Below are positions 5,916-48,849 of a DNA stretch of 64,000 nt, piece by piece (the first letter of the stretch is position 1; each line of letters opens with the position of its first letter). The position numbers and the translations under genes are program-made. Under the pieces are notes generated by a model. That model was not told the DNA's origin and ran no database searches. It saw only the letters and a list, made by a program, of their open reading frames with translations. The DNA lies in the NCBI GenBank assembly GCA_024720975.1, contig JANJXX010000005.1, positions 7,059-71,058 of the forward strand, given 5' to 3'. The stretch is from Thermoproteota archaeon. GTDB lineage: Archaea; Asgardarchaeota; Njordarchaeia; Njordarchaeales; Panguiarchaeaceae.

Positions 5916-6859
5916 ATCAAATACTTAAATAAAACTATAAGCGCCACGGCGGAAAGTATAGGAATTGGTAGAGCTGGTAAAGCCTCAGCCTCTAATTTGA
6001 ATAACAAAACTTCAGTGATAACTACTCCTAATATTATCATGATGCAAATAATGAGAGTCTCAAGTGGGCTGAGAACGGCAAATGAGTAGCCGACAGCAAA
6101 GCTATAGAAGAAAATGTCTCCCAAACCCATTGCGGAACCGAATTTGGGTTCATACTCGGATTCTACTATGTCTTGACGCAAACTTTTAGCTAACTCTTTG
6201 AGTGGTCCTCTGAGAACACTATACAAGTCGTATAAGGCAAAACCTAAGAGTAAAACTATGGGGGTTAGCTCGCCAAGGCTCCAACTAAGCCAGACGCCAA
6301 CCCAACTTGCAGTGAGGACGAGAATGATATTTCTAAGTTGCAGAAGAGTTCCTCTCACGCAGGAAATTATGTATATCATAGTGGAAACTGCCGAGAGTGA
6401 TACTGAGAGCATAATGAGATAGGTAATGGTTGCTTGATTGAATTCCGAAAAGCCGGCTACGCTTGCAAGTGCATAAGCGCCCATCACAAAGCTCATGTTA
6501 AGCGTCATTATGAATATTATATATGACATTAAAACGACTAGGATATTTCTCAGGAGAATTATTTTGCCGCGCTTTACTAAGAATACTAGTAGGAATGTGA
6601 TTAAGACAACAATAAGGAGGAAGTAAAGCAGGTTCAAGACCGCTGCGAACGCTCCGAGCTCAGATTCTCCCACAGGTGCTGCGCTTTCACTTATTTCGAG
6701 CTGTAGAAAATACTTCAAGATGCTTGAGGTAAATATAGCAAAAGTCACTGATGATATAGTGAGTATACCCACAACCGTCAGAACTTTTTTCTGCTTTCGT
6801 TCAATCGGAAAGATAAGCATTGGAAGTGCTAATGAGAGCTTTTCGATATCACTGCTCAT
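5912..6859 (-). CDS. Presenilin / signal-peptide-peptidase family intramembrane aspartyl protease (GxGD type)
   Basis: Multi-TM protein with YD (FALYDLYSV), GLGD (MGLGDIFFY) and PAL (LPALPIP) motifs in canonical order. Confidence 0.75.
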   Translation of the reverse strand: MSSDIEKLSLALPMLIFPIERKQKKVLTVVGILTISSVTFAIFTSSILKYFLQLEISESAAPVGESELGAFAAVLNLLYFLLIVVLITFLLVFLVKRGKIILLRNILVVLMSYIIFIMTLNMSFVMGAYALASVAGFSEFNQATITYLIMLSVSLSAVSTMIYIISCVRGTLLQLRNIILVLTASWVGVWLSWSLGELTPIVLLLGFALYDLYSVLRGPLKELAKSLRQDIVESEYEPKFGSAMGLGDIFFYSFAVGYSFAVLSPLETLIICIMIILGVVITEVLLFKLEAEALPALPIPILSAVALIVLFKYLI

Positions 6860-31252: not shown

Positions 31253-31559
31253 TTTACGCAGATACCTTATCAGTTATGACACCTAGCTAATCAAACTACG
31301 CCTCTCAATGGTTCGAAAAGCTTGAAAAACCCAAACCATAAAATTGACAAAAATTCGTCAAATATCCTTAAGTACACAGTAATAAAGCTTTTTTAGACAC
31401 AAGTAGCATTTATCTAGATAGATCTCGATTCAAAGTGATTCGATGAGCCGGTAATTTCCAAATGGTTGAGACTTCTATCGCGGGTTCCCCATAGCCATAT
31501 ATAGATTCTTTGCGCTTTTGTCTAAGTAGGTAACATGTTGGACTGTTTTCTTTGTGAAC

Positions 31560-31568
31560 TTTTTAAGC
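31560..31568 (+). promoter_or_regulatory. TATA-like box of repeated RNA element, copy 1
   Basis: TTTTTAAGC lies within the block GTGAACTTTTTAAGCTATTTTAGCTAC. That block is conserved upstream of all three copies. Confidence 0.5.
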
Positions 31569-31660
31569 TATTTTAGCTACTACAGATACATAGAAACAAA
31601 AGAGAAACCAGTGAGCATAAAGATTTTTATACCTTAATTCTATATGAACTGATATTAGGC

Positions 31661-31861
31661 TCTCGCCTCAATGACGGCGTGGTGGTCATCAGAGGCGGGA
31701 GGATACACCTGTCTCTCGAGGCGGGCTTAGTGGTGCCCGTCGATGTAGCTCCCGATGACCCTGCGACAAATGAGCAGGTGCTGAGGGAGAAGCCCGTGTC
31801 GAGTATATCTATGATATTTAAAATACCTAAACAAACCCAAATAAGCGACACGGACAACCAC
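31661..31861 (+). ncRNA. Unclassified GC-rich structured RNA element, copy 1
   Basis: ~200-nt GC-rich island in AT-rich DNA, homologous to 34402-34602 and 46576-46779(-). Shows conserved and compensatory stems. Its ORFs are not preserved in copy 3. Confidence 0.6.
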
Positions 31862-31954
31862 TTAATGATGATTTTATATTTGTCTTAAGCTACTGCAATA
31901 TCATAGTTGATTTCCTAATGTATTATTGTTGGAATAGAGTATCGACTGAGTCCC

Positions 31955-32653
31955 GTGGTGAAATTAATGAGCGAACAGAAAGGGGAAGAATCCAAAATGT
32001 CAGAAGAATCGCAAGTCGAGGCGGAAGCTGAGAAGATCCTCAAAGAACTTGAAGCTGGCGAGATTAAGCTTTTTGATAGATGGAGTTGGAAAAACATAGT
32101 TGTAAGGGATCCGGGTCTTGTAACGTATATATCTTTAAAACCTATGTATGTTCCTCATAGCTTTGGTAGGCACGAAAAAACGCGTTTTGCGAAGGCGAAA
32201 GTTAATATAGTTGAGAGATTGATAAATAGATTAATGACACCGGGCAGAGAAAAGGGTCAACCTAAGACCGGCAGGTTTACTGGTAAAAAACTTCATGCCA
32301 TGAAAATTGTAGAGGCAGCATTTGAAATAATAGAAAAATTGACAAAGGAGAATCCTATACAGGTATTCGTGAGAGCAGTGGAAAATGTTGCTCCGAGAGA
32401 GGACTATACATCTTTCAGAGTTGCAGGAATTATCAAGAAATTTGCAGTTGATATAAGTCCGCAGAGAAGGGTAGATTTAGCTCTTAAATTCATAGTATTA
32501 GGTGCTAGGCAACGTGCATGGAGATCACCAATTAGTATAGCCGAAGCCCTTGCAGAGGAGATAATTGAAGCAGCAAAGGGTCCAGATAATGTAAACTCAA
32601 TAGCCGTAAGCAAAAAGATAGAATTAGAAAGGATAGCAGAAGCCGCCAGATGA
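31955..32653 (+). CDS. rps7: 30S ribosomal protein S7 (uS7)
   Basis: Strong archaeal S7 pattern (VERLINRLM.PGR..GKK..A..IV..AFEII...T..NPIQV.V.A.EN..PRE). Start ambiguous (GTG 31955 or ATG 31967). Confidence 0.9.
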   Translation: MVKLMSEQKGEESKMSEESQVEAEAEKILKELEAGEIKLFDRWSWKNIVVRDPGLVTYISLKPMYVPHSFGRHEKTRFAKAKVNIVERLINRLMTPGREKGQPKTGRFTGKKLHAMKIVEAAFEIIEKLTKENPIQVFVRAVENVAPREDYTSFRVAGIIKKFAVDISPQRRVDLALKFIVLGARQRAWRSPISIAEALAEEIIEAAKGPDNVNSIAVSKKIELERIAEAAR

Positions 32654-32655
32654 TA

Positions 32656-33408
32656 CTATTCCACAGTTTTCAAAAATTCTTCTATTGCTTCTATCGTTTG
32701 CTTAAGCATAGCTGAGAATAGTCTTTCCCCCTTTTCCCTTGATGCTCTACTAGGATAGCCCAGCGCACCAGTATCGGTAAATTCTATTGTTCTCCAGGGA
32801 TATATAGCTCTGCTCTTGCTTCGAAAATCGAGATGTTTACCCAAATGACGGAGCTTTGGATCGATAACCTTGTTAAGACGTACTAGATTAGGTTCTTCGA
32901 ATAGCATTATGGATGTTTCAAATTCACAAGCATGTCCCCATACATCGCTCTCAAGAATTTCTTTTACTGTGTCGTTAATTAGTTCCCAAGGATTAATAAG
33001 GAGAGCATTGATCTTATATTCAAATTTCAATTTCCTAACAGCTTCTGAAAGTGCATTAGTATTACCCCCATGTCCATTTATAATTATTATGGCTCGAACG
33101 CCATGCTTTGCTAAACTATTTGCAATTTCACAAACGAGTCTGATAAGAGTCTCAGAGGAAATTGTTATTGTTCCTGGAAAATCCATGTGATGCTCAGAGA
33201 CACCATAATACACCGGAGGAAGAACAAGTATAGAACCACCAAAATTCTTGGCTACTTCCAGGGAGAATTTGTATGCACTTATTGTATCAGTTATTAAGGG
33301 CAAATGATATGCGTGTTGTTCCGTGCTTCCGATGGGTAAGATAGCGGCTCTTAATCTGGGAATAGCATTCTTGATTTCGTCCCAACTACAGAATCCCCAT
33401 TCATGCAT
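32656..33408 (-). CDS. Creatininase-family amidohydrolase
   Basis: GSTEQHAYHLP and INGHGGN motifs. Confidence 0.8.
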   Translation of the reverse strand: MHEWGFCSWDEIKNAIPRLRAAILPIGSTEQHAYHLPLITDTISAYKFSLEVAKNFGGSILVLPPVYYGVSEHHMDFPGTITISSETLIRLVCEIANSLAKHGVRAIIIINGHGGNTNALSEAVRKLKFEYKINALLINPWELINDTVKEILESDVWGHACEFETSIMLFEEPNLVRLNKVIDPKLRHLGKHLDFRSKSRAIYPWRTIEFTDTGALGYPSRASREKGERLFSAMLKQTIEAIEEFLKTVE

Positions 33409-33887: not shown

Positions 33888-34297
33888 AAACTAGCTTCTG
33901 TGCAGTCAGCCACTCTTTTTTCATTCCTCATTTATCAGACTATTATATTAATTTCTGCTGCCTTCATCTATCGAACTAGGATGACGACCCAATCCTAGTA
34001 ATCTAACAATAGTAATACGTCTAGAACCCTTAACTTTAGATTAACCACTCTCTAATGTGGGTATACTCCACTTCTCCGGCTATTGGTCGTTATTCCGGAT
34101 GATATCCTACAGTTCATATCCTAATAGGAACCCAGCCAGCGCAAAGAAACTTTACCAGGCCGTGCCATAAGCTTTTATAATCATAGCCTTCCAGAGAGCG
34201 TAGTACCCTTGAAAAATCTCCAGCCTTTGGGTTAAAGCAAGGTATATATGCCTATAACTTAAGATAAAAAGTAACAAGACTGTGTCTTCCGTAAAAG

Positions 34298-34306
34298 TTT
34301 TTAAGC
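34298..34306 (+). promoter_or_regulatory. TATA-like box of repeated RNA element, copy 2
   Basis: TTTTTAAGC within GTAAAAGTTTTTAAGCTGTTTTAGCTAC. Confidence 0.5.
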
Positions 34307-34401
34307 TGTTTTAGCTACTATAGGTACTTGGAATCAGATTCAAGTGCAAGAAATGCGGATTCGAGTTTAACTCACACTACGTAGCTTGCCTAAACCTCTT
34401 C

Positions 34402-34602
34402 TCTCGCCTCAATGACGGCGTGGTAGCCATCAGAGGCGGGAGGATATATGCATACCTCGAGGCGGGCTTAGTGGTGCCCGTCGATGTAGCTCCCGATGAC
34501 CCTGCGATAGATGAGCAGGTGGCGAGGGAGAAGCCCGTGTCGATAATACCCAAGATAATCAAAACACCTGAACAAACCCAAATAAGCGACACGGGCAACC
34601 AC
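34402..34602 (+). ncRNA. Unclassified GC-rich structured RNA element, copy 2
   Basis: Near-identical core to copy 1. The terminal stem GCCCGUGUCG/CGACACGGGC is perfect. The element ends 1 nt before the rps12 stop codon on the opposite strand. Confidence 0.6.
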
Positions 34603-34603
34603 T

Positions 34604-35044
34604 CTATCTCTTCTCTTTCTTCTTGCGGCCAGATACAAGCTCATATAGGGATATTCCATTAACCTTAATTACACGGTATTTTACACCGGGAATATCGCCA
34701 AACGAGCGTCCACGAACTCCTCCTATGGGTTGAATTAGAACCTCATCATGCTCATCAATCATTAAAAGTCCACCGTCATAAGGTACAAAGGCAGTTACAA
34801 TTTTCCCATTTTTCTTTAATTTTACCTTCACACACTTTCTAAGAGCGCCTGTTGGTTTTCGTGCCTCGACTCCAACTTTTTTGAGGACAATCCCTAACGC
34901 CTGCGGAGCTCCCTCAAGTGGATCAAACTTCTTCTTGAATCTTAGGACTCTCCTCTTATAATCGAGGTCAGCCCATCGTGCTTTACTCCTCTTTTTCCTC
35001 AGTATCCTTACTGCAAACTCTCCCCTTGGTGATTTCGTTACCAT
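34604..35044 (-). CDS. rps12: 30S ribosomal protein S12 (uS12)
   Basis: [40 protein letters not shown]....[27 protein letters not shown]. The ATG at 35044 is preferred to the ORF start at 35116. Confidence 0.9.
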
Positions 35045-35305
35045 TTCTCCTTCCTCATTCTTATACATGCTTGCTAGGTAGTACACTATCATTTCAGGCT
35101 TTTTAAGGTAAGTCATTGCTTCACCTGGTTTGAATATGACCTATCAGCTATAGAGCTCAAGTAGATGGCTTAGTTTAAAGAACTTTAAAGTCGTGGTTAC
35201 CTAAGATACCTTTCCTGCATTGAAGTAAGTCAGAAGAAGATACCCTACTCTAGCTCACTCAATAATCAAGTTTCTCGGCAACCGCTAAGTCTACAAGTCT
35301 AACTT

Positions 35306-44867: not shown

Positions 44868-46550
44868 TTAGCCAACGGATTTGAAGCGCCATTTACTATA
44901 AGCCCGACGCGCGCTTATTATTGCATGTGCATTAAGGCTCATCCAATACATCCCAGATTCTTCGAAGAGCTTTGCTGCTTTCTTAAGCAGTTTAATCGCT
45001 AGTTTTTCCCTCTCGTCAATGATTTTGTTGGAGATTTCGTTGAGAAATGATGCGTAAACGGGAGCGCTTCTGGGGAGTAAAAGTTTTTCAGCAGTCTTTA
45101 CGGTTTCTAGAAGTAGGTATTCCTGGTGATTTTGAACAGATCCTAAAGCTACTGCGAATAGTATCTCACCAAGTTCATTTGCTCGAAGTTTTGCATGCTC
45201 TAGATTGTTCAATATGTACCGAATGCCGTCAGTAAATTTTTTCTTCGAAAGATATTTGACAGCAATAATTAGGTAAAGTGGATCACTTAAACCGATCAGT
45301 CTTTCTATAGCTTTAGAGATGTCGTTCTCGCTGTCTGAGACTATGATTGTAATGAGTGATTCTAATCCAATCTTGTGTCTGGCTTCATTAATCAACTCTG
45401 AAGTGCTACTGAAAATTTCAGTGAGCTCACGAAACTTCTCATTGCTAGTTGCTACTTGAAAGAGCTCATTCCAAATCTCTAGGTGCTGAAGGCCGCTTAT
45501 TTTGTTCTCTTTATTGAACGTTCTGATAGCATTTACCAGTAAAGTCTTAAGCCCAAGTCGCAAGGCAGCCGCGGCATATGCTTTAAAAACTCTTAGCGTA
45601 CATGGTTGATCTTCAACCTCATAGCAAATGTTTATGGCCAAGTCTAGGTATGCTTGGCTACTTGATGCATCTTTGCTAAGCAAGTTTATTGCGTATTTTA
45701 GTGCAAGCTCTATTAATCCATTTCTTGCGCCTAGGTTATATAACTTGCTGATGATCAAATTCATGATTCCTATGGATTCGATATCACACTTCTCGAGTGC
45801 AACGGCTAATATTTTAGCAAGCATGTCAGCTTGATCCTTGGTTTCGACTTTACCCAGCGCCTTCGCAATCAATTCTGGAAAAAATCCAGGAATGCATTCA
45901 ACTTCGTTTATATACTCCCAGAGAGTAATTAAGAAGTTACTGAGATCATTATTGACTAAATCAAGAAATTTCTTGTTAGTTTCCTCATTCGGTAGGTACG
46001 AAAGAGCAATTCCTAGTAAACTAAAATACAGTCTAGGATCAATAACTCTTATCTTATTGATGAAGTCGAAGCAAAGTGCATTGTTTCCTCTTTTAAGTAG
46101 CACTCGGATTAGATTTCTCGATAATAGTCTATCCTCAAAATCTGAGAATCCCCGCGATAGCAGTAGGTCAAAAACTTCGGTAGCATTCGGATTGACGAGA
46201 AATAGCTCTCTAAAATATATAACTTTGGCTTGATCAAAAGCGCTAGCATCGAATAGAGATAATAGTTCCCCGAGTTTCTCTAGATACTTCCCACTAGGAA
46301 CAATTCTCTTGATAAGGTACTCAAAAATTGTAAGTGCCGCTTGTTGCATCGAAGCCTTAAGAAAAGATACTATCGCTAAACGACCATATTGTAGCATAGA
46401 CTCAAGGGTGTTAGAAAGATAGAGTAACTCCCTGTAGAATTTAGCAACAGCAAACCAAATAATTCTAGATTCATATCCGATCTCAGGCAATATTGGCTCG
46501 TTTTCCAATTGTCTTAGTATGCTCCTAGCTAATTTATAATCCTTAAGCAT
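44868..46550 (-). CDS. Hypothetical all-helical repeat protein (560 aa)
   Basis: Long ORF with no motif recognised. It lies immediately downstream of RNA element copy 3 on the same strand. Confidence 0.5.
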   Translation of the reverse strand: MLKDYKLARSILRQLENEPILPEIGYESRIIWFAVAKFYRELLYLSNTLESMLQYGRLAIVSFLKASMQQAALTIFEYLIKRIVPSGKYLEKLGELLSLFDASAFDQAKVIYFRELFLVNPNATEVFDLLLSRGFSDFEDRLLSRNLIRVLLKRGNNALCFDFINKIRVIDPRLYFSLLGIALSYLPNEETNKKFLDLVNNDLSNFLITLWEYINEVECIPGFFPELIAKALGKVETKDQADMLAKILAVALEKCDIESIGIMNLIISKLYNLGARNGLIELALKYAINLLSKDASSSQAYLDLAINICYEVEDQPCTLRVFKAYAAAALRLGLKTLLVNAIRTFNKENKISGLQHLEIWNELFQVATSNEKFRELTEIFSSTSELINEARHKIGLESLITIIVSDSENDISKAIERLIGLSDPLYLIIAVKYLSKKKFTDGIRYILNNLEHAKLRANELGEILFAVALGSVQNHQEYLLLETVKTAEKLLLPRSAPVYASFLNEISNKIIDEREKLAIKLLKKAAKLFEESGMYWMSLNAHAIISARRAYSKWRFKSVG

Positions 46551-46575
46551 TTAGTAAAACCAGCTAACACCATCA

Positions 46576-46779
46576 GTGGTTGCCCGTGTTTTTTTGTTCA
46601 GGTTTGCCTAGGTGTTTTGGATAACATGAATACTATTAACACGGGCTTCTTCCCCAGTACCTGCTTACCTATCGCGGGTCATAGAGGTACATCGACGGGC
46701 ACCAACGAGCCCGCCTCGGGGGATAGACATATCCTTCTGCTCCCCCTGGTGGCTACTCTACCGTCATTGAGGCGGGACA
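46576..46779 (-). ncRNA. Unclassified GC-rich structured RNA element, copy 3 (most divergent)
   Basis: The reverse complement aligns with copies 1 and 2. Stems are maintained by compensatory changes (GGGGGA/UCCCCC and GCCCGUGUU/AACACGGGC). No ORF is present. Confidence 0.6.
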
Positions 46780-46814
46780 CTTTTTGATTCCAAGTACCTA
46801 TGGTAGTTAAAATA

Positions 46815-46823
46815 GCTTAAAAA
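46815..46823 (-). promoter_or_regulatory. TATA-like box of repeated RNA element, copy 3
   Basis: The reverse complement reads GTAAAGTTTTTAAGCTATTTTAACTAC. Upstream homology to copy 1 continues to 46869. Confidence 0.5.
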
Positions 46824-46920
46824 CTTTACAGAGAAAACAGTCCAAGAGATTTGATGACATAAAAGCGCAGTAGTTGGAGCTTCCTAATAGCATATTGAAG
46901 AAGGATTACTGGAGTATATG

Positions 46921-47751
46921 TCAGGTACTCATGGCAATTAGCAGCTCGCGAGCAATGGCTGCTGCTAGGGTCGCTGTTGTACTTCTGAGTTCCCCTCCTG
47001 TCAGCTCTACAATATCGGCGAACTTAGGCCTTAAGTATTTTAAGTATCGTAGCAGCAAGTTAGGAGGCAGACCGAAGGGCTCCGGTGTACCAACATCTGG
47101 GGCATAAGCGGGGTCGAAAACGTCCAGGTCTAGGGAGATGTAATCAGCTTTTTTGAAAATGTCCTTAAGTACTGCTTCATTTTCAAGTATGTCATATGTC
47201 GAGTATGCCTCAACACCAAATTCCTCCAGTGCTTTTAACTCTTCGGGGATACCAGTCCTGTAACCTAAGAGCACTACTCTGTCATAACCAAGGAGCTCAC
47301 CAGCTCGCCTTAATGTGCATCCGTGCGAATACTTCAGTTCTTGATATGTATCTTCAAAATCTGGATCAGCATCAATATGCACATACATTTTAACTTGATT
47401 GTGCAAGTGCTGGAGTGTCATAATTGTTATAGAGTGATCTCCTCCAAGAAATAGGTATTTCTTTGCACCTATCGTTCCAAGTGCTTCACGAACCTTTTGC
47501 ATTGTTTCTAAAAATCCGCCATGAATCACCTCAACATCTCCCCAGTCTGATATTGGAAACTCGCTGACGCTCCTCTTGAAAAACAAACTAAATTCATTTA
47601 GCGTTTTAGATGCTAACCTTATGAGTAGGGGGCCATGTCGACTTCCAACGAAAGCAGATTGGGTACTATCAAATGGTATGCCAAGCACTGCTATGTCTAG
47701 GTTTTTTGCAGCGGGCAAACCAAAAAGGGTTACATGGTTCAAGATAGGCAT
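46921..47751 (-). CDS. speB: Agmatinase / ureohydrolase family
   Basis: GGDHSIT, HIDADPD and SLDLDVFDPAYAP Mn-binding motifs. Confidence 0.85.
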   Translation of the reverse strand: MPILNHVTLFGLPAAKNLDIAVLGIPFDSTQSAFVGSRHGPLLIRLASKTLNEFSLFFKRSVSEFPISDWGDVEVIHGGFLETMQKVREALGTIGAKKYLFLGGDHSITIMTLQHLHNQVKMYVHIDADPDFEDTYQELKYSHGCTLRRAGELLGYDRVVLLGYRTGIPEELKALEEFGVEAYSTYDILENEAVLKDIFKKADYISLDLDVFDPAYAPDVGTPEPFGLPPNLLLRYLKYLRPKFADIVELTGGELRSTTATLAAAIARELLIAMST

Positions 47752-47865: not shown

Positions 47866-48849
47866 CTAAACACGCGAATTAGAAAAGAAATTCTCTAGAC
47901 GTATTCTTTCAGCCGTCCTGCTCCTCAATTCTATCCTGCTTGGAATTAAGTGTGTTCCATCACACGATGGTGCTCTAAAGTACTTCGGTGTGGTTAAATT
48001 CTCTCGGCAGGTTGCATATGTAAGTTTAAGTTTGTTTGCTTCATCCACAACGGGCCATAAAATTCTCCTCCTTAATTGAATGGGAGCATAAGCATAACCC
48101 AACTTTATCTTCCCTCCCGGATAATAAAGTTTCATCCATTTGGCTTTCAGCTCTGGAAAGGCATTTACCATTCTAGCAAAGTTATCTGGTCGTGCTTTAT
48201 ATGTTGATGTTACTACATGCTTTGCTCCAATGCTTGCCACTTCCCTCACAAGCTCTCTCAAACTATTTTCATCGTCATTTAGGTACGGTATTACTGGATC
48301 CACCCTCACAGAAAATGGGACATTATGATCCTTAAGGATCTCCAGCGCCTTTAAGCGATTACTAGGCGGGGGTGCGTTCGGCTCTAGTCTTCTTGCCAAA
48401 CTATCATCCAGTGTAGTAATAGTAACACTTACAGCAACGTTATATCGAGAAAGCAAATCAATGTCCCTCAAAAGCGCATCACTTTTCGTCGTTATCTGAA
48501 CACGCAGGCCCGCTGGAAGTAAGAGCTCAAGAACAGCTCTGGTTATGCCTAGAATCCTTTCCTCCGGTGGATATGGATCAGAGCTAAGACTCATATCTAC
48601 AGGAAATCTAGGATCAATATACTTAAGATCTCTCCGGAGTCTATGATTGAGATATTGTTTCGGTTTGCTCTCTCTAGATCTAATGTAGGCAGTAGTATAG
48701 CAGTAGAGACAACGGTGCGAGCAGCCCGTGTAAGGATTTATAGTATACTTACGAGGACATGTACATAATGGGCTTCGCCAAGGATCAAAAGAGGTTAATA
48801 CAGTGCCCAATAGAACCACTTCACACCTCTGGATTAGAAAACATATCAA
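47866..48849 (-). CDS. Radical SAM protein, SplB/COG1533-like (DNA-repair-photolyase-like family)
   Basis: NPYTGCSHRCLYCY cluster motif. Start ambiguous. Confidence 0.7.
   Translation of the reverse strand: MICFLIQRCEVVLLGTVLTSFDPWRSPLCTCPRKYTINPYTGCSHRCLYCYTTAYIRSRESKPKQYLNHRLRRDLKYIDPRFPVDMSLSSDPYPPEERILGITRAVLELLLPAGLRVQITTKSDALLRDIDLLSRYNVAVSVTITTLDDSLARRLEPNAPPPSNRLKALEILKDHNVPFSVRVDPVIPYLNDDENSLRELVREVASIGAKHVVTSTYKARPDNFARMVNAFPELKAKWMKLYYPGGKIKLGYAYAPIQLRRRILWPVVDEANKLKLTYATCRENLTTPKYFRAPSCDGTHLIPSRIELRSRTAERIRLENFFSNSRV

Follow-up and report, generated by a model that had tools for sequence, protein, structure and literature searches.

Three copies of a short repeat with a G+C-rich core lie in the 64-kb window (the whole stretch of 64,000 nucleotides from the archaeal contig JANJXX010000005.1 that was analysed here), and the third of them, on the minus strand, immediately precedes a gene for a 560-residue protein. 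The first-pass annotation of this DNA regarded copy 3 as a novel structured leader; that identity was not borne out, because the element is the left end (LE) of an IS607 transposon joined to the 3' end of tnpB with its omegaRNA scaffold. Copies 1, 2 and 3 are very probably non-autonomous, protein-less deletion derivatives of an IS607-family element, each carrying an LE and a scaffold of the TnpB omegaRNA (right-end RNA, reRNA), with the leader role of copy 3 a by-product of insertion.

This assignment comes from full-length relatives in other archaea (loci outside the window are given L numbers). The L038 element begins with the promoter block (GGACTGTGTCTTCCGTAAAAGTTTTTAAGCTGTTTTAGCTACTATAG..., ∼60 nt), which is followed by a 51-residue HTH_17/MerR open reading frame (ORF) and then by tnpB. 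The same LE block constitutes the first ∼60 nt of the full-length elements in L038, L089, L091, L092 and L101, where it lies ∼30 nt upstream of the start codon of tnpA or its helix-turn-helix (HTH) part. Three of these (L089, L092 and L101) have 445 extra nt between HTH and tnpB, and the extra ORF of L089 is a serine recombinase (NF033518 transpos_IS607, 188 bits against a cut-off of 110, together with a Resolvase Pfam domain), the HTH part of this tnpA being frameshifted. The order LE, tnpA(Ser), tnpB, right end (RE) in the full-length relatives therefore makes the parent an IS607-family element.

The 437-residue ORF of L038 matches the Pfam family Cas12f1-like_TNB and Cas12f/TnpB chains in the PDB, and scores 96.6 bits against NCBIfam guided_TnpB, just below the cut-off of 100. 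It enters the core by ∼165 nt and stops ∼35 nt before the terminal CAACCAC; the TnpB ORF of L089 also extends ∼165 nt into the 202-nt core, and the coding sequence ..RFKCKKCGFEFNSHYVACLNLF.. stands directly before the core in L032, L038, L060, L019 and L076. Since the core comprises the last ∼80 codons of tnpB plus the 3' untranslated region (UTR) and ends at the RE, it occupies the position of the TnpB omegaRNA scaffold. Copy 3 is homologous to the full-length L038 element over query positions 20-81 and 1402-1604, and copy 2 matches it at 95-98% identity (blastn). A tblastn search of the window with the L038 TnpB returned only three C-terminal remnants, one in each copy (Table 1). The spacer of copy 2 corresponds to tnpB codons ∼360-380, that of copy 1 is unrelated filler, and copy 3 has no spacer, the beginning of the tnpA 5' UTR running straight into the first scaffold helix, with the join apparently at a TCC microhomology as judged by sequence reading.

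Boundaries, derivation and distribution of the mini-elements

Using positions 46500-46950 as a query, blastn found two further copies in the window, at ∼31538-31862 (+) and ∼34278-34603 (+). Between copies the core is 73-75% identical (E from 1e-26 to 1e-33) and the promoter block 84-86% identical (E from 1e-13 to 1e-15). A covariance model (CM) gives exactly three matches in the window (E from 5.6e-43 to 2e-54), and the promoter-block pattern also occurs three times, against 0.01 expected. The three homologous copies described earlier are thus real. In a three-way alignment, a ∼60-nt upstream block common to all copies is followed by a ∼60-nt segment and then by the ∼200-nt core, which ends in CAACCAC in all three; the middle segment is present in copies 1 and 2, differing between them, and is missing from copy 3, as had been reported.

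The left boundary lies at GACTGT, just upstream of which 12 independent insertions diverge, and the right boundary at CAACCAC, directly after which ∼20 right flanks diverge. Copy 3 therefore runs from 46842 to 46576 and not up to 46869. The homology that the first-pass annotation had extended upstream to TGCGCTTTT is indeed common to copy 1, but it lies outside the element, as the flanks diverge at GACTGT. The last base of CAACCAC is 46576, which agrees with the annotated distance of 25 nt to the ATG at 46550, and copy 1 likewise ends 93 nt before the S7 ORF (GTG start, 31955; Ribosomal_S7 domain). The right end of copy 2 lies 1 nt from the stop codon of S12, which is on the opposite strand. 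Across 12 left flanks, the base at -1 before ACTGT is G in every case, that at -2 is A in nine and G in three, and that at -3 is T in seven; the first base of the right flank is T in 14 of 20. In none of the three copies do the two flanks contain a target-site duplication (TSD). Terminal inverted repeats were not found, the sole word shared by LE and RE, and hence the sole candidate for a TnpA site common to both ends, being a weak TGTTTT.

Three occurrences of the word TGCGCTTTT were counted in the window, against 0.74 expected (31511-31519, 46861-46869 and 48470-48478); two of them lie 21-27 nt upstream of the LE of copies 1 and 3, outside the element. Its recurrence there may reflect native TATA-like promoter DNA or a target preference. 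At copy 1, the metagenome contig L093 is 100% identical to window positions 31541-32362, which hold this copy and the start of S7; left of GACTGT, L093 (823-5359) leads to guaA, pstS and pstC, where the window has a 445-residue ORF. The difference is a rearrangement or a population variant with its breakpoint exactly at the LE of copy 1.

Further members were sought by scanning 185,579 species genomes with the pattern GGCGGGC-N(2-8)-GGTGCCCGTCGATG. Among the loci listed, 14 matches are archaeal, every one with 26-nt spacing, and belong to Desulfurococcaceae, Ignisphaera, Sulfolobales, Staphylothermus, an uncultured archaeon and the Asgard metagenome-assembled genomes (MAGs) Baldrarchaeum and Njordarchaeota. 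Some 65 of the 80 listed loci are chance matches in G+C-rich bacteria with a spacing other than 26 nt; two matches in viral contigs are likewise chance, neither of them (0/2) matching the covariance model. The window itself has a G+C content of 40% and ribosomal protein families S7p/S5e and S12/S23, and bacterial hallmarks were not found in it. A cyanobacterial noncoding RNA, the IscB HEARO RNA and the tracrRNA of CRISPR-associated transposons (CAST) were considered and dropped, because these ribosomal families and the archaeal matches pointed to an archaeal origin and a tnpB context. The element is also not a PATE (palindrome-associated transposable element, derived from IS200/IS605 and having subterminal palindromic ends), because its parent uses a serine recombinase and not a Y1 transposase (TnpA). 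No Rfam family matches anywhere in the window at the gathering threshold, a permissive scan (E ≤ 10) of 46400-47000 gave noise only, and no tRNA or tmRNA genes were found in the window.

Gene-less forms have arisen repeatedly. The short form, with the LE fused to the scaffold, is also found in the Sulfolobales MAGs L010 and L078 and in L099. At least four independently derived deletion forms are known (copy 1 with L093; copy 2 with L097; copy 3 with L099, L010 and L078; and L048), and all have an LE plus the whole 202-nt scaffold, while further truncated, scaffold-only fragments occur elsewhere (L006, L094 and L077). How mini-elements arise is directly visible in two Desulfurococcaceae MAGs, in which the full-length L038 and the internally deleted L048 occupy the same insertion site. 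In this pair, L048 (3764-4255) is a deleted version of L038 (478-2059) with an inverted 48-nt tnpB fragment and new TATA-like filler. Where the upstream region of more distant mini-elements is available (L005 and L047), the scaffold is again accompanied by an LE-like start (GGACTATTCAC) and a TATA-like box.

Mini-forms are found in MAGs labelled as Korarchaeota, Sulfolobales and Asgard, and the ∼20 insertions in other archaea have no consistent placement relative to genes. The Asgard MAG Baldrarchaeum yapensis has at least three copies of distant gene-less units (L005, L017 and L049), the scaffold being 67% G+C. TnpB homologs 85-90% identical to that of L038 bear the labels Desulfurococcaceae, Bathyarchaeia, Acidilobaceae and Nanopusillaceae, a spread that suggests frequent horizontal transfer. 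At L077 (∼5975-6053), the right end lies 3 nt from an opposite-strand sequence that by eye resembles the end of a tRNA gene.

Table 1. Coordinates of the elements, their parts and related features. Positions are those of the window unless a locus or protein is named.
Feature	Position	Strand	Basis or remarks
Copy 3, whole mini-IS607 element, 267 nt	46576..46842	-	LE fused directly to omegaRNA scaffold; left and right flanks; homology to L038; no counterpart in L088
Copy 3 LE with BRE/TATA-like block and start of tnpA 5' UTR (the promoter block)	46779..46842	-	Shared with full-length relatives
BRE/TATA-like TTTTTAAG in copy 3 LE	46816-46823	-	Putative promoter
Copy 3 omegaRNA (reRNA) scaffold, 203 nt	46576..46778	-	CM R1, 192.7 bits, E 5.6e-43; tblastn to L038 TnpB 381-430
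Flank 3' of copy 3 right end, predicted omegaRNA guide segment; whole space left before the ATG of the 560-residue protein	46551..46575	-	Divergence after CAACCAC; guide role predicted from TnpB literature
Native intergenic DNA left of copy 3, outside the element; has TGCGCTTTT (46861-46869) within TATA-like GCGCTTTTATG	46843..46920	-	
Copy 1	31541..31861	+	LE 31541-31604; 55-nt unrelated filler 31605-31659; scaffold 31660-31861
Copy 2	34278..34602	+	LE 34278-34336; tnpB-derived spacer 34336-34400; scaffold 34401-34602; CM match 241 bits
TnpB remnant in copy 2	TnpB residues 360-436		tblastn, 92% amino-acid identity
TnpB remnant in copy 1	TnpB residues 378-435		tblastn, 74% amino-acid identity
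TnpB remnant in copy 3	TnpB residues 381-430		tblastn, 63% amino-acid identity
560-residue TPR-like helical-repeat gene, downstream of copy 3	44868..46550	-	AlphaFold2 (AF2) model
TnpB of L038	509-1822	-	
TnpB of L089	3705-4982	+	

Fold of the omegaRNA scaffold

The fold was derived with RNAalifold from 17 scaffolds and then from a CM-based alignment of 25. The consensus has five nested helices: P1 is a long 5' hairpin, P2 encloses P3 and P4, and P5 is a 3' hairpin whose A-rich loop is ∼45 nt long. Pairing of GUGGU in the P3 loop with the 3'-end ACCAC was added to the model as a pseudoknot; its pairs are invariant and therefore uninformative for covariation. In this alignment, which is fitted to the model and consists of related sequences whose ancestors were protein-coding for most of the scaffold, 94.5% of cells are paired compared with 36-54% when partners are slid, two-sided changes are seen at 19 of the 44 pairs compared with 3-7 in slid controls, and none of 500 shuffles reached the observed values. 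Family-wide covariation in these sequences supports a conserved RNA fold. Both strands of P4 and one or two P5 pairs are changed in the distant members L019, L005, L047 and L076, and both strands of P1 in L089 and L019. The P4 helices of the four distant members are out of register in the MAFFT and CM alignments, so that the P4 covariation was read by eye and is under-counted.

Much of the conservation of the core is a legacy of protein coding, because the core is the C-terminus of tnpB. An Asp (in N-D-G) is invariant among 108 homologs of this TnpB family, 13 residues downstream of the RuvC-III position, and is encoded, with its neighbours, by the invariant AAUGACGG within P1 of the omegaRNA. 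Because this stretch encodes N-D-G inside helix P1, it is under both protein and RNA constraint.

Copy 3 had been put forward as the source of covariation evidence, differing from the other copies at many positions while keeping the stems. The stems are largely kept, with 36 of the 39 nested pairs intact, and differences from copy 2 fall on 10 of 88 paired positions (11%) and 43 of 118 unpaired positions (36%). As covariation evidence, however, this copy is weak: relative to copies 1 and 2 it has one true double change, a U:A to C:G replacement in P2, and five one-sided changes involving G-U wobble pairs, and set against these are four broken pairs, namely three C·A mismatches in P1 and one mismatch in the pseudoknot. 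Judged from these alignments, copy 3 is the most eroded of the members compared and contributes little to the evidence for covariation, and it may no longer make a working omegaRNA.

The 560-residue gene, a proposed mechanism and the alternatives

An ortholog of the 560-residue gene without the insertion is available in L088, and the comparison of orthologous loci that had been envisaged in the first-pass annotation could thus be made. The gene order of this contig is that of the window (QueT, DUF6364, radical SAM, arginase family and a 555-residue gene), and the spacer between the arginase-family gene and the gene in question is 60 nt without the element. The corresponding spacer in the window measures 370 nt, of which the element accounts for 267 nt and the native DNA upstream and downstream of it for 78 and 25 nt, respectively. 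The reconstructed empty-site junction reads ...ATCTCTTG|TGATGGTG..., and places the TATA-like GCGCTTTTATG 41-48 nt before the ATG, where L088 has CTTTTTTAAT. Insertion of copy 3 has separated this TATA-like sequence from the ATG of the 560-residue gene. The element is present in three other assemblies of the same species, and the protein is 100% conserved in strains with the insertion.

The 25 nt left before the ATG are too short for an archaeal promoter, so that transcripts of the 560-residue gene very likely start in copy 3 or read through it. They very likely begin at the displaced native box, at the LE promoter or possibly in the region of the A-rich P5 loop, or else read through from the arginase gene. 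No strong oligo-T terminator was seen after the right end of copy 3. Two of the three copies had been described as positioned to donate a promoter and a structured leader to the gene downstream. This holds for copy 3 as far as its placement is concerned, since the element has the orientation of the gene and ends 25 nt before the ATG, but the arrangement is not general in the family: copy 2 is antisense, and the ∼20 other insertions show no consistent position relative to genes. A leader specific to one gene would be expected on the sense strand ahead of the orthologs of a single gene family; here the ortholog in L088 has no element and unrelated genes flank the copies. The effect of copy 3 on the 560-residue gene would be a by-product of insertion and not that of a dedicated regulator.

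The protein itself has no match in Pfam or NCBIfam, and falls into only two clusters among 5.8e9 proteins, the other cluster being 61% identical. Its AF2 model is all-alpha (pLDDT 68), with only generic TPR-like solenoid matches at low TM-scores; its earlier description as a helical-repeat protein is borne out by this predicted structure. The gene lies between arginase-family and radical SAM/SPASM genes, near BpsA and AdoMet decarboxylase (AdoMet_dc), so that the polyamine-type neighbourhood was correctly recognized. Around copies 1 and 2, the S7 gene (31955-32653, +) and the S12 gene (34604-35116, -) are convergent, with a creatininase-family gene (32656-33408, -) and copy 2 between them. In archaea, S12 and S7 are usually found together in an S12-S7 operon. 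Both ORFs as called have N-terminal extensions of ∼57-60 residues before the Pfam domain. The elements may mark past rearrangements at S7/S12.

A mechanism can be proposed from what is known of TnpB. In IS605 and IS607 elements, TnpB with its right-end omegaRNA, the guide of which comes from the flank, cuts the empty donor site next to a transposon-adjacent motif (TAM) and drives re-copying of the element (Meers et al., 2023; Zedaveinyte et al., 2023); retention is promoted by TnpB in the IS607 family, whose elements have neither inverted repeats nor a TSD (Zedaveinyte et al., 2023). Gene-less PATEs 'often encode omegaRNAs', which TnpB must use in trans (Meers et al., 2023). The full-length parent here consists of an LE with a block resembling an archaeal transcription factor B recognition element (BRE) and TATA box, a serine-recombinase tnpA with a MerR-type HTH, a tnpB of ∼430 codons and the right end; in the mini-elements, an internal deletion has brought the LE and the first part of the tnpA 5' UTR next to the scaffold. 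The BRE/TATA-like sequence of the LE (GTAAAAG-TTTTTAAG) lies ∼25 nt upstream of the conserved start of the 5' UTR, and a promoter at this site would transcribe the scaffold and the flanking DNA directly. The first ∼16-20 nt of the flank (46575-∼46556) would then serve as the guide, and T-R-G to the left of the LE as a TAM-like or target motif.

By analogy with characterized TnpB systems, the scaffold would act as a TnpB-bound guide RNA that directs TAM-dependent cleavage. Since the window has no tnpB, omegaRNA activity would depend on a copy elsewhere in the genome. TnpB made there would form a ribonucleoprotein that cuts the allele lacking the element, at a guide match preceded by a TAM-like T-R-G, and repair from the occupied copy would restore the element, amounting to homing or retention as for IS605 and IS607 TnpB; for transposition to new sites, TnpA would have to be supplied in trans. 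A bolder extension appears unlikely: that promoter-equipped, omegaRNA-only mini-IS607 elements are selected as 'guide-RNA satellites' in thermophilic archaea, parasitizing TnpA and TnpB of full-length elements and acting as portable promoters that take over transcription of host genes, by virtue of an outward-reading archaeal promoter and of insertion between TATA box and start codon as at the 560-residue gene, with TGCGCTTTT reflecting a promoter-like target preference.

Several observations weigh against the derivation of the copies from an IS607-family element with a usable omegaRNA scaffold, in addition to the model-fitted alignment behind the structure counts. Neither tnpA nor tnpB of the IS607 family concerned is present in the 64-kb window, and Korarchaeota, the label on the record of the 560-residue protein, does not occur as a name among the 120 best TnpB homologs. 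The LE junction is R-G, with GG in only 3 of 12, compared with the strict GG core reported for bacterial IS607. Furthermore, at the position of the RuvC-III catalytic Asp (N-A-D-x-N in Cas12f/TnpB), 92 of 108 TnpB homologs have Q and 16 have H. Archaeal serine-recombinase-associated TnpB branches with rearranged sites are presumed to be active (Altae-Tran et al.), and nuclease activity of the present family is presumed by the same 'rearranged site' argument. The condition of copy 3 also counts here. To its four broken pairs is added a consensus-fold energy of -36.6 kcal/mol, the weakest of the main family (copy 2, -57.6; L038, -60.4). Among strains, its 267 nt diverge by 3.75% (L085), 1.5% (L086) and 0.4% (L087), compared with ∼0.1% for flanking genes, and in L085 10 of 18 differences in 7.7 kb fall within the element; this divergence fits gene conversion, a repeat-collapsed consensus in the MAG, or decay under relaxed constraint better than it fits strong constraint.

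These last observations are also those expected if copy 3, with the same ancestry, were an inert, decaying transposon fragment that makes no functional omegaRNA, is not mobilisable and merely lengthens the 5' region of the 560-residue gene. The lost pairs and weak fold energy, a strain divergence mostly well above that of the flanking genes, a remnant frame broken by indels and a stop, the lack of a cognate tnpB in the window and the existence of truncated scaffold-only fragments (L006, L094 and L077) all favour this explanation, which is tenable but the less probable one. The independent deletion forms, at least four in number, have all retained the LE and the entire 202-nt scaffold, however, and even the distant L005 and L047 pair an LE-like start and TATA-like box with the scaffold. 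Moreover, the differences between copies avoid paired positions, and mini-elements of the copy 3 lineage have spread and diverged in their own right (L099).

Selection for some other function was also considered. The units could be a mobile promoter with a structured 5' leader that has been selected for control of the 560-residue gene and rps7, as would be suggested by copies 1 and 3, which share the orientation of a gene and end 93 and 25 nt before it, respectively; copy 3, lying between a TATA-like box and the ATG of a protein that is fully conserved in insertion-bearing strains and followed by no strong oligo-T terminator, probably supplies a transcription start or leader. Such a dedicated cis-regulatory role is nevertheless improbable, given that copy 2 is antisense and abuts the S12 stop codon, that ∼20 insertions in other archaea lack consistent gene-proximal, co-oriented placement, that the L088 ortholog works without the element, that no Rfam family matches, and that a transposon end plus the 3' end of tnpB fully explain the sequence. 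It is far less credible still that the units are kept for a short peptide, the C-terminal tail of TnpB (..SRLNDGVVAIRGGRIY..VVPVDVAPDDP..). Copies 1 and 2 retain an open remnant frame (ORFs of 69 and 80 residues), which encodes the N-D-G that is invariant in the TnpB family; against this, copy 3 has indels and a stop after ∼33 codons, the fused start region of L010 appears from sequence reading to be out of the TnpB frame, no start codon is conserved across the deletion forms, and the tail has no Pfam domain, the TNB match on the L038 TnpB ending at residue 380.

Comparison with known systems

Derivation from an IS607-family element replaces the label of a novel structured leader with covariation by a concrete, testable identity, and what is known of OMEGA systems makes none of it surprising. 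A candidate 202-nt omegaRNA family that is absent from Rfam is now defined from thermophilic archaea; it belongs to a serine-recombinase-associated TnpB clade with a non-canonical RuvC-III site. The full-length relatives L038 and L089 and the compact promoter-scaffold units could be starting material for thermostable RNA-guided tools, and copy 3 is a clear-cut case from nature of a transposon remnant lodged between the TATA-like box and the start codon of a gene.

The closest counterparts are IS607 elements with TnpB and a right-end omegaRNA, such as the CboIStron (Zedaveinyte et al., 2023) and those whose TnpBs use RAGATH-18-derived reRNAs (Cell Res, 2024). They have the same gene order, with tnpB after a serine-recombinase tnpA whose product has an N-terminal HTH of MerR type, the same overlap of the scaffold with the 3' end of tnpB and the same stop at the right end, and lack inverted repeats and a TSD in the same way. 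The R-G left junction, which is mostly AG here, resembles the TGGG/GG target of the CboIStron and is not identical to it. In contrast to the known IS607 systems, the present elements are archaeal and thermophilic, their scaffold matches no Rfam family including RAGATH-18, their TnpB family has Q or H for the RuvC-III Asp, and the copies in the window have lost both genes.

Two archaeal or regulatory systems offer partial likenesses. SisTnpB1 from Sulfolobus islandicus (Xu et al., 2023) is likewise archaeal and thermophilic and is a demonstrated TAM-dependent nuclease with a right-end RNA guide; its element, however, is of the IS200/IS605 type, its TAM is TTTAA and its RuvC is canonical. The exapted TnpB proteins known as TldR (Wiegand et al., 2023) likewise involve a stand-alone unit of scaffold and guide, and such a unit could act promoter-proximally. 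However, TldR guides are directed to fixed promoters elsewhere and lie beside an immobilized, nuclease-dead tnpB, whereas the units described here are multi-copy, bounded by transposon ends and polymorphic in presence or absence, and their 'guide' is whatever flanks the insertion.

In their reduction, the mini-elements resemble the PATE-like IS200/IS605 derivatives of G. stearothermophilus (Meers et al., 2023): both are minimal, both keep both ends and an omegaRNA, and both would rely on TnpB and TnpA in trans. The PATE-like elements are bacterial, depend on a Y1 transposase (IS605) and have palindromic ends, whereas those described here are archaeal, belong to the serine-recombinase IS607 family and have kept the BRE/TATA-like LE block of their parent, fused directly to the scaffold. 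By the features tested, the element belongs with the IS607-family TnpB/omegaRNA elements, and its resemblance to PATEs is functional only.

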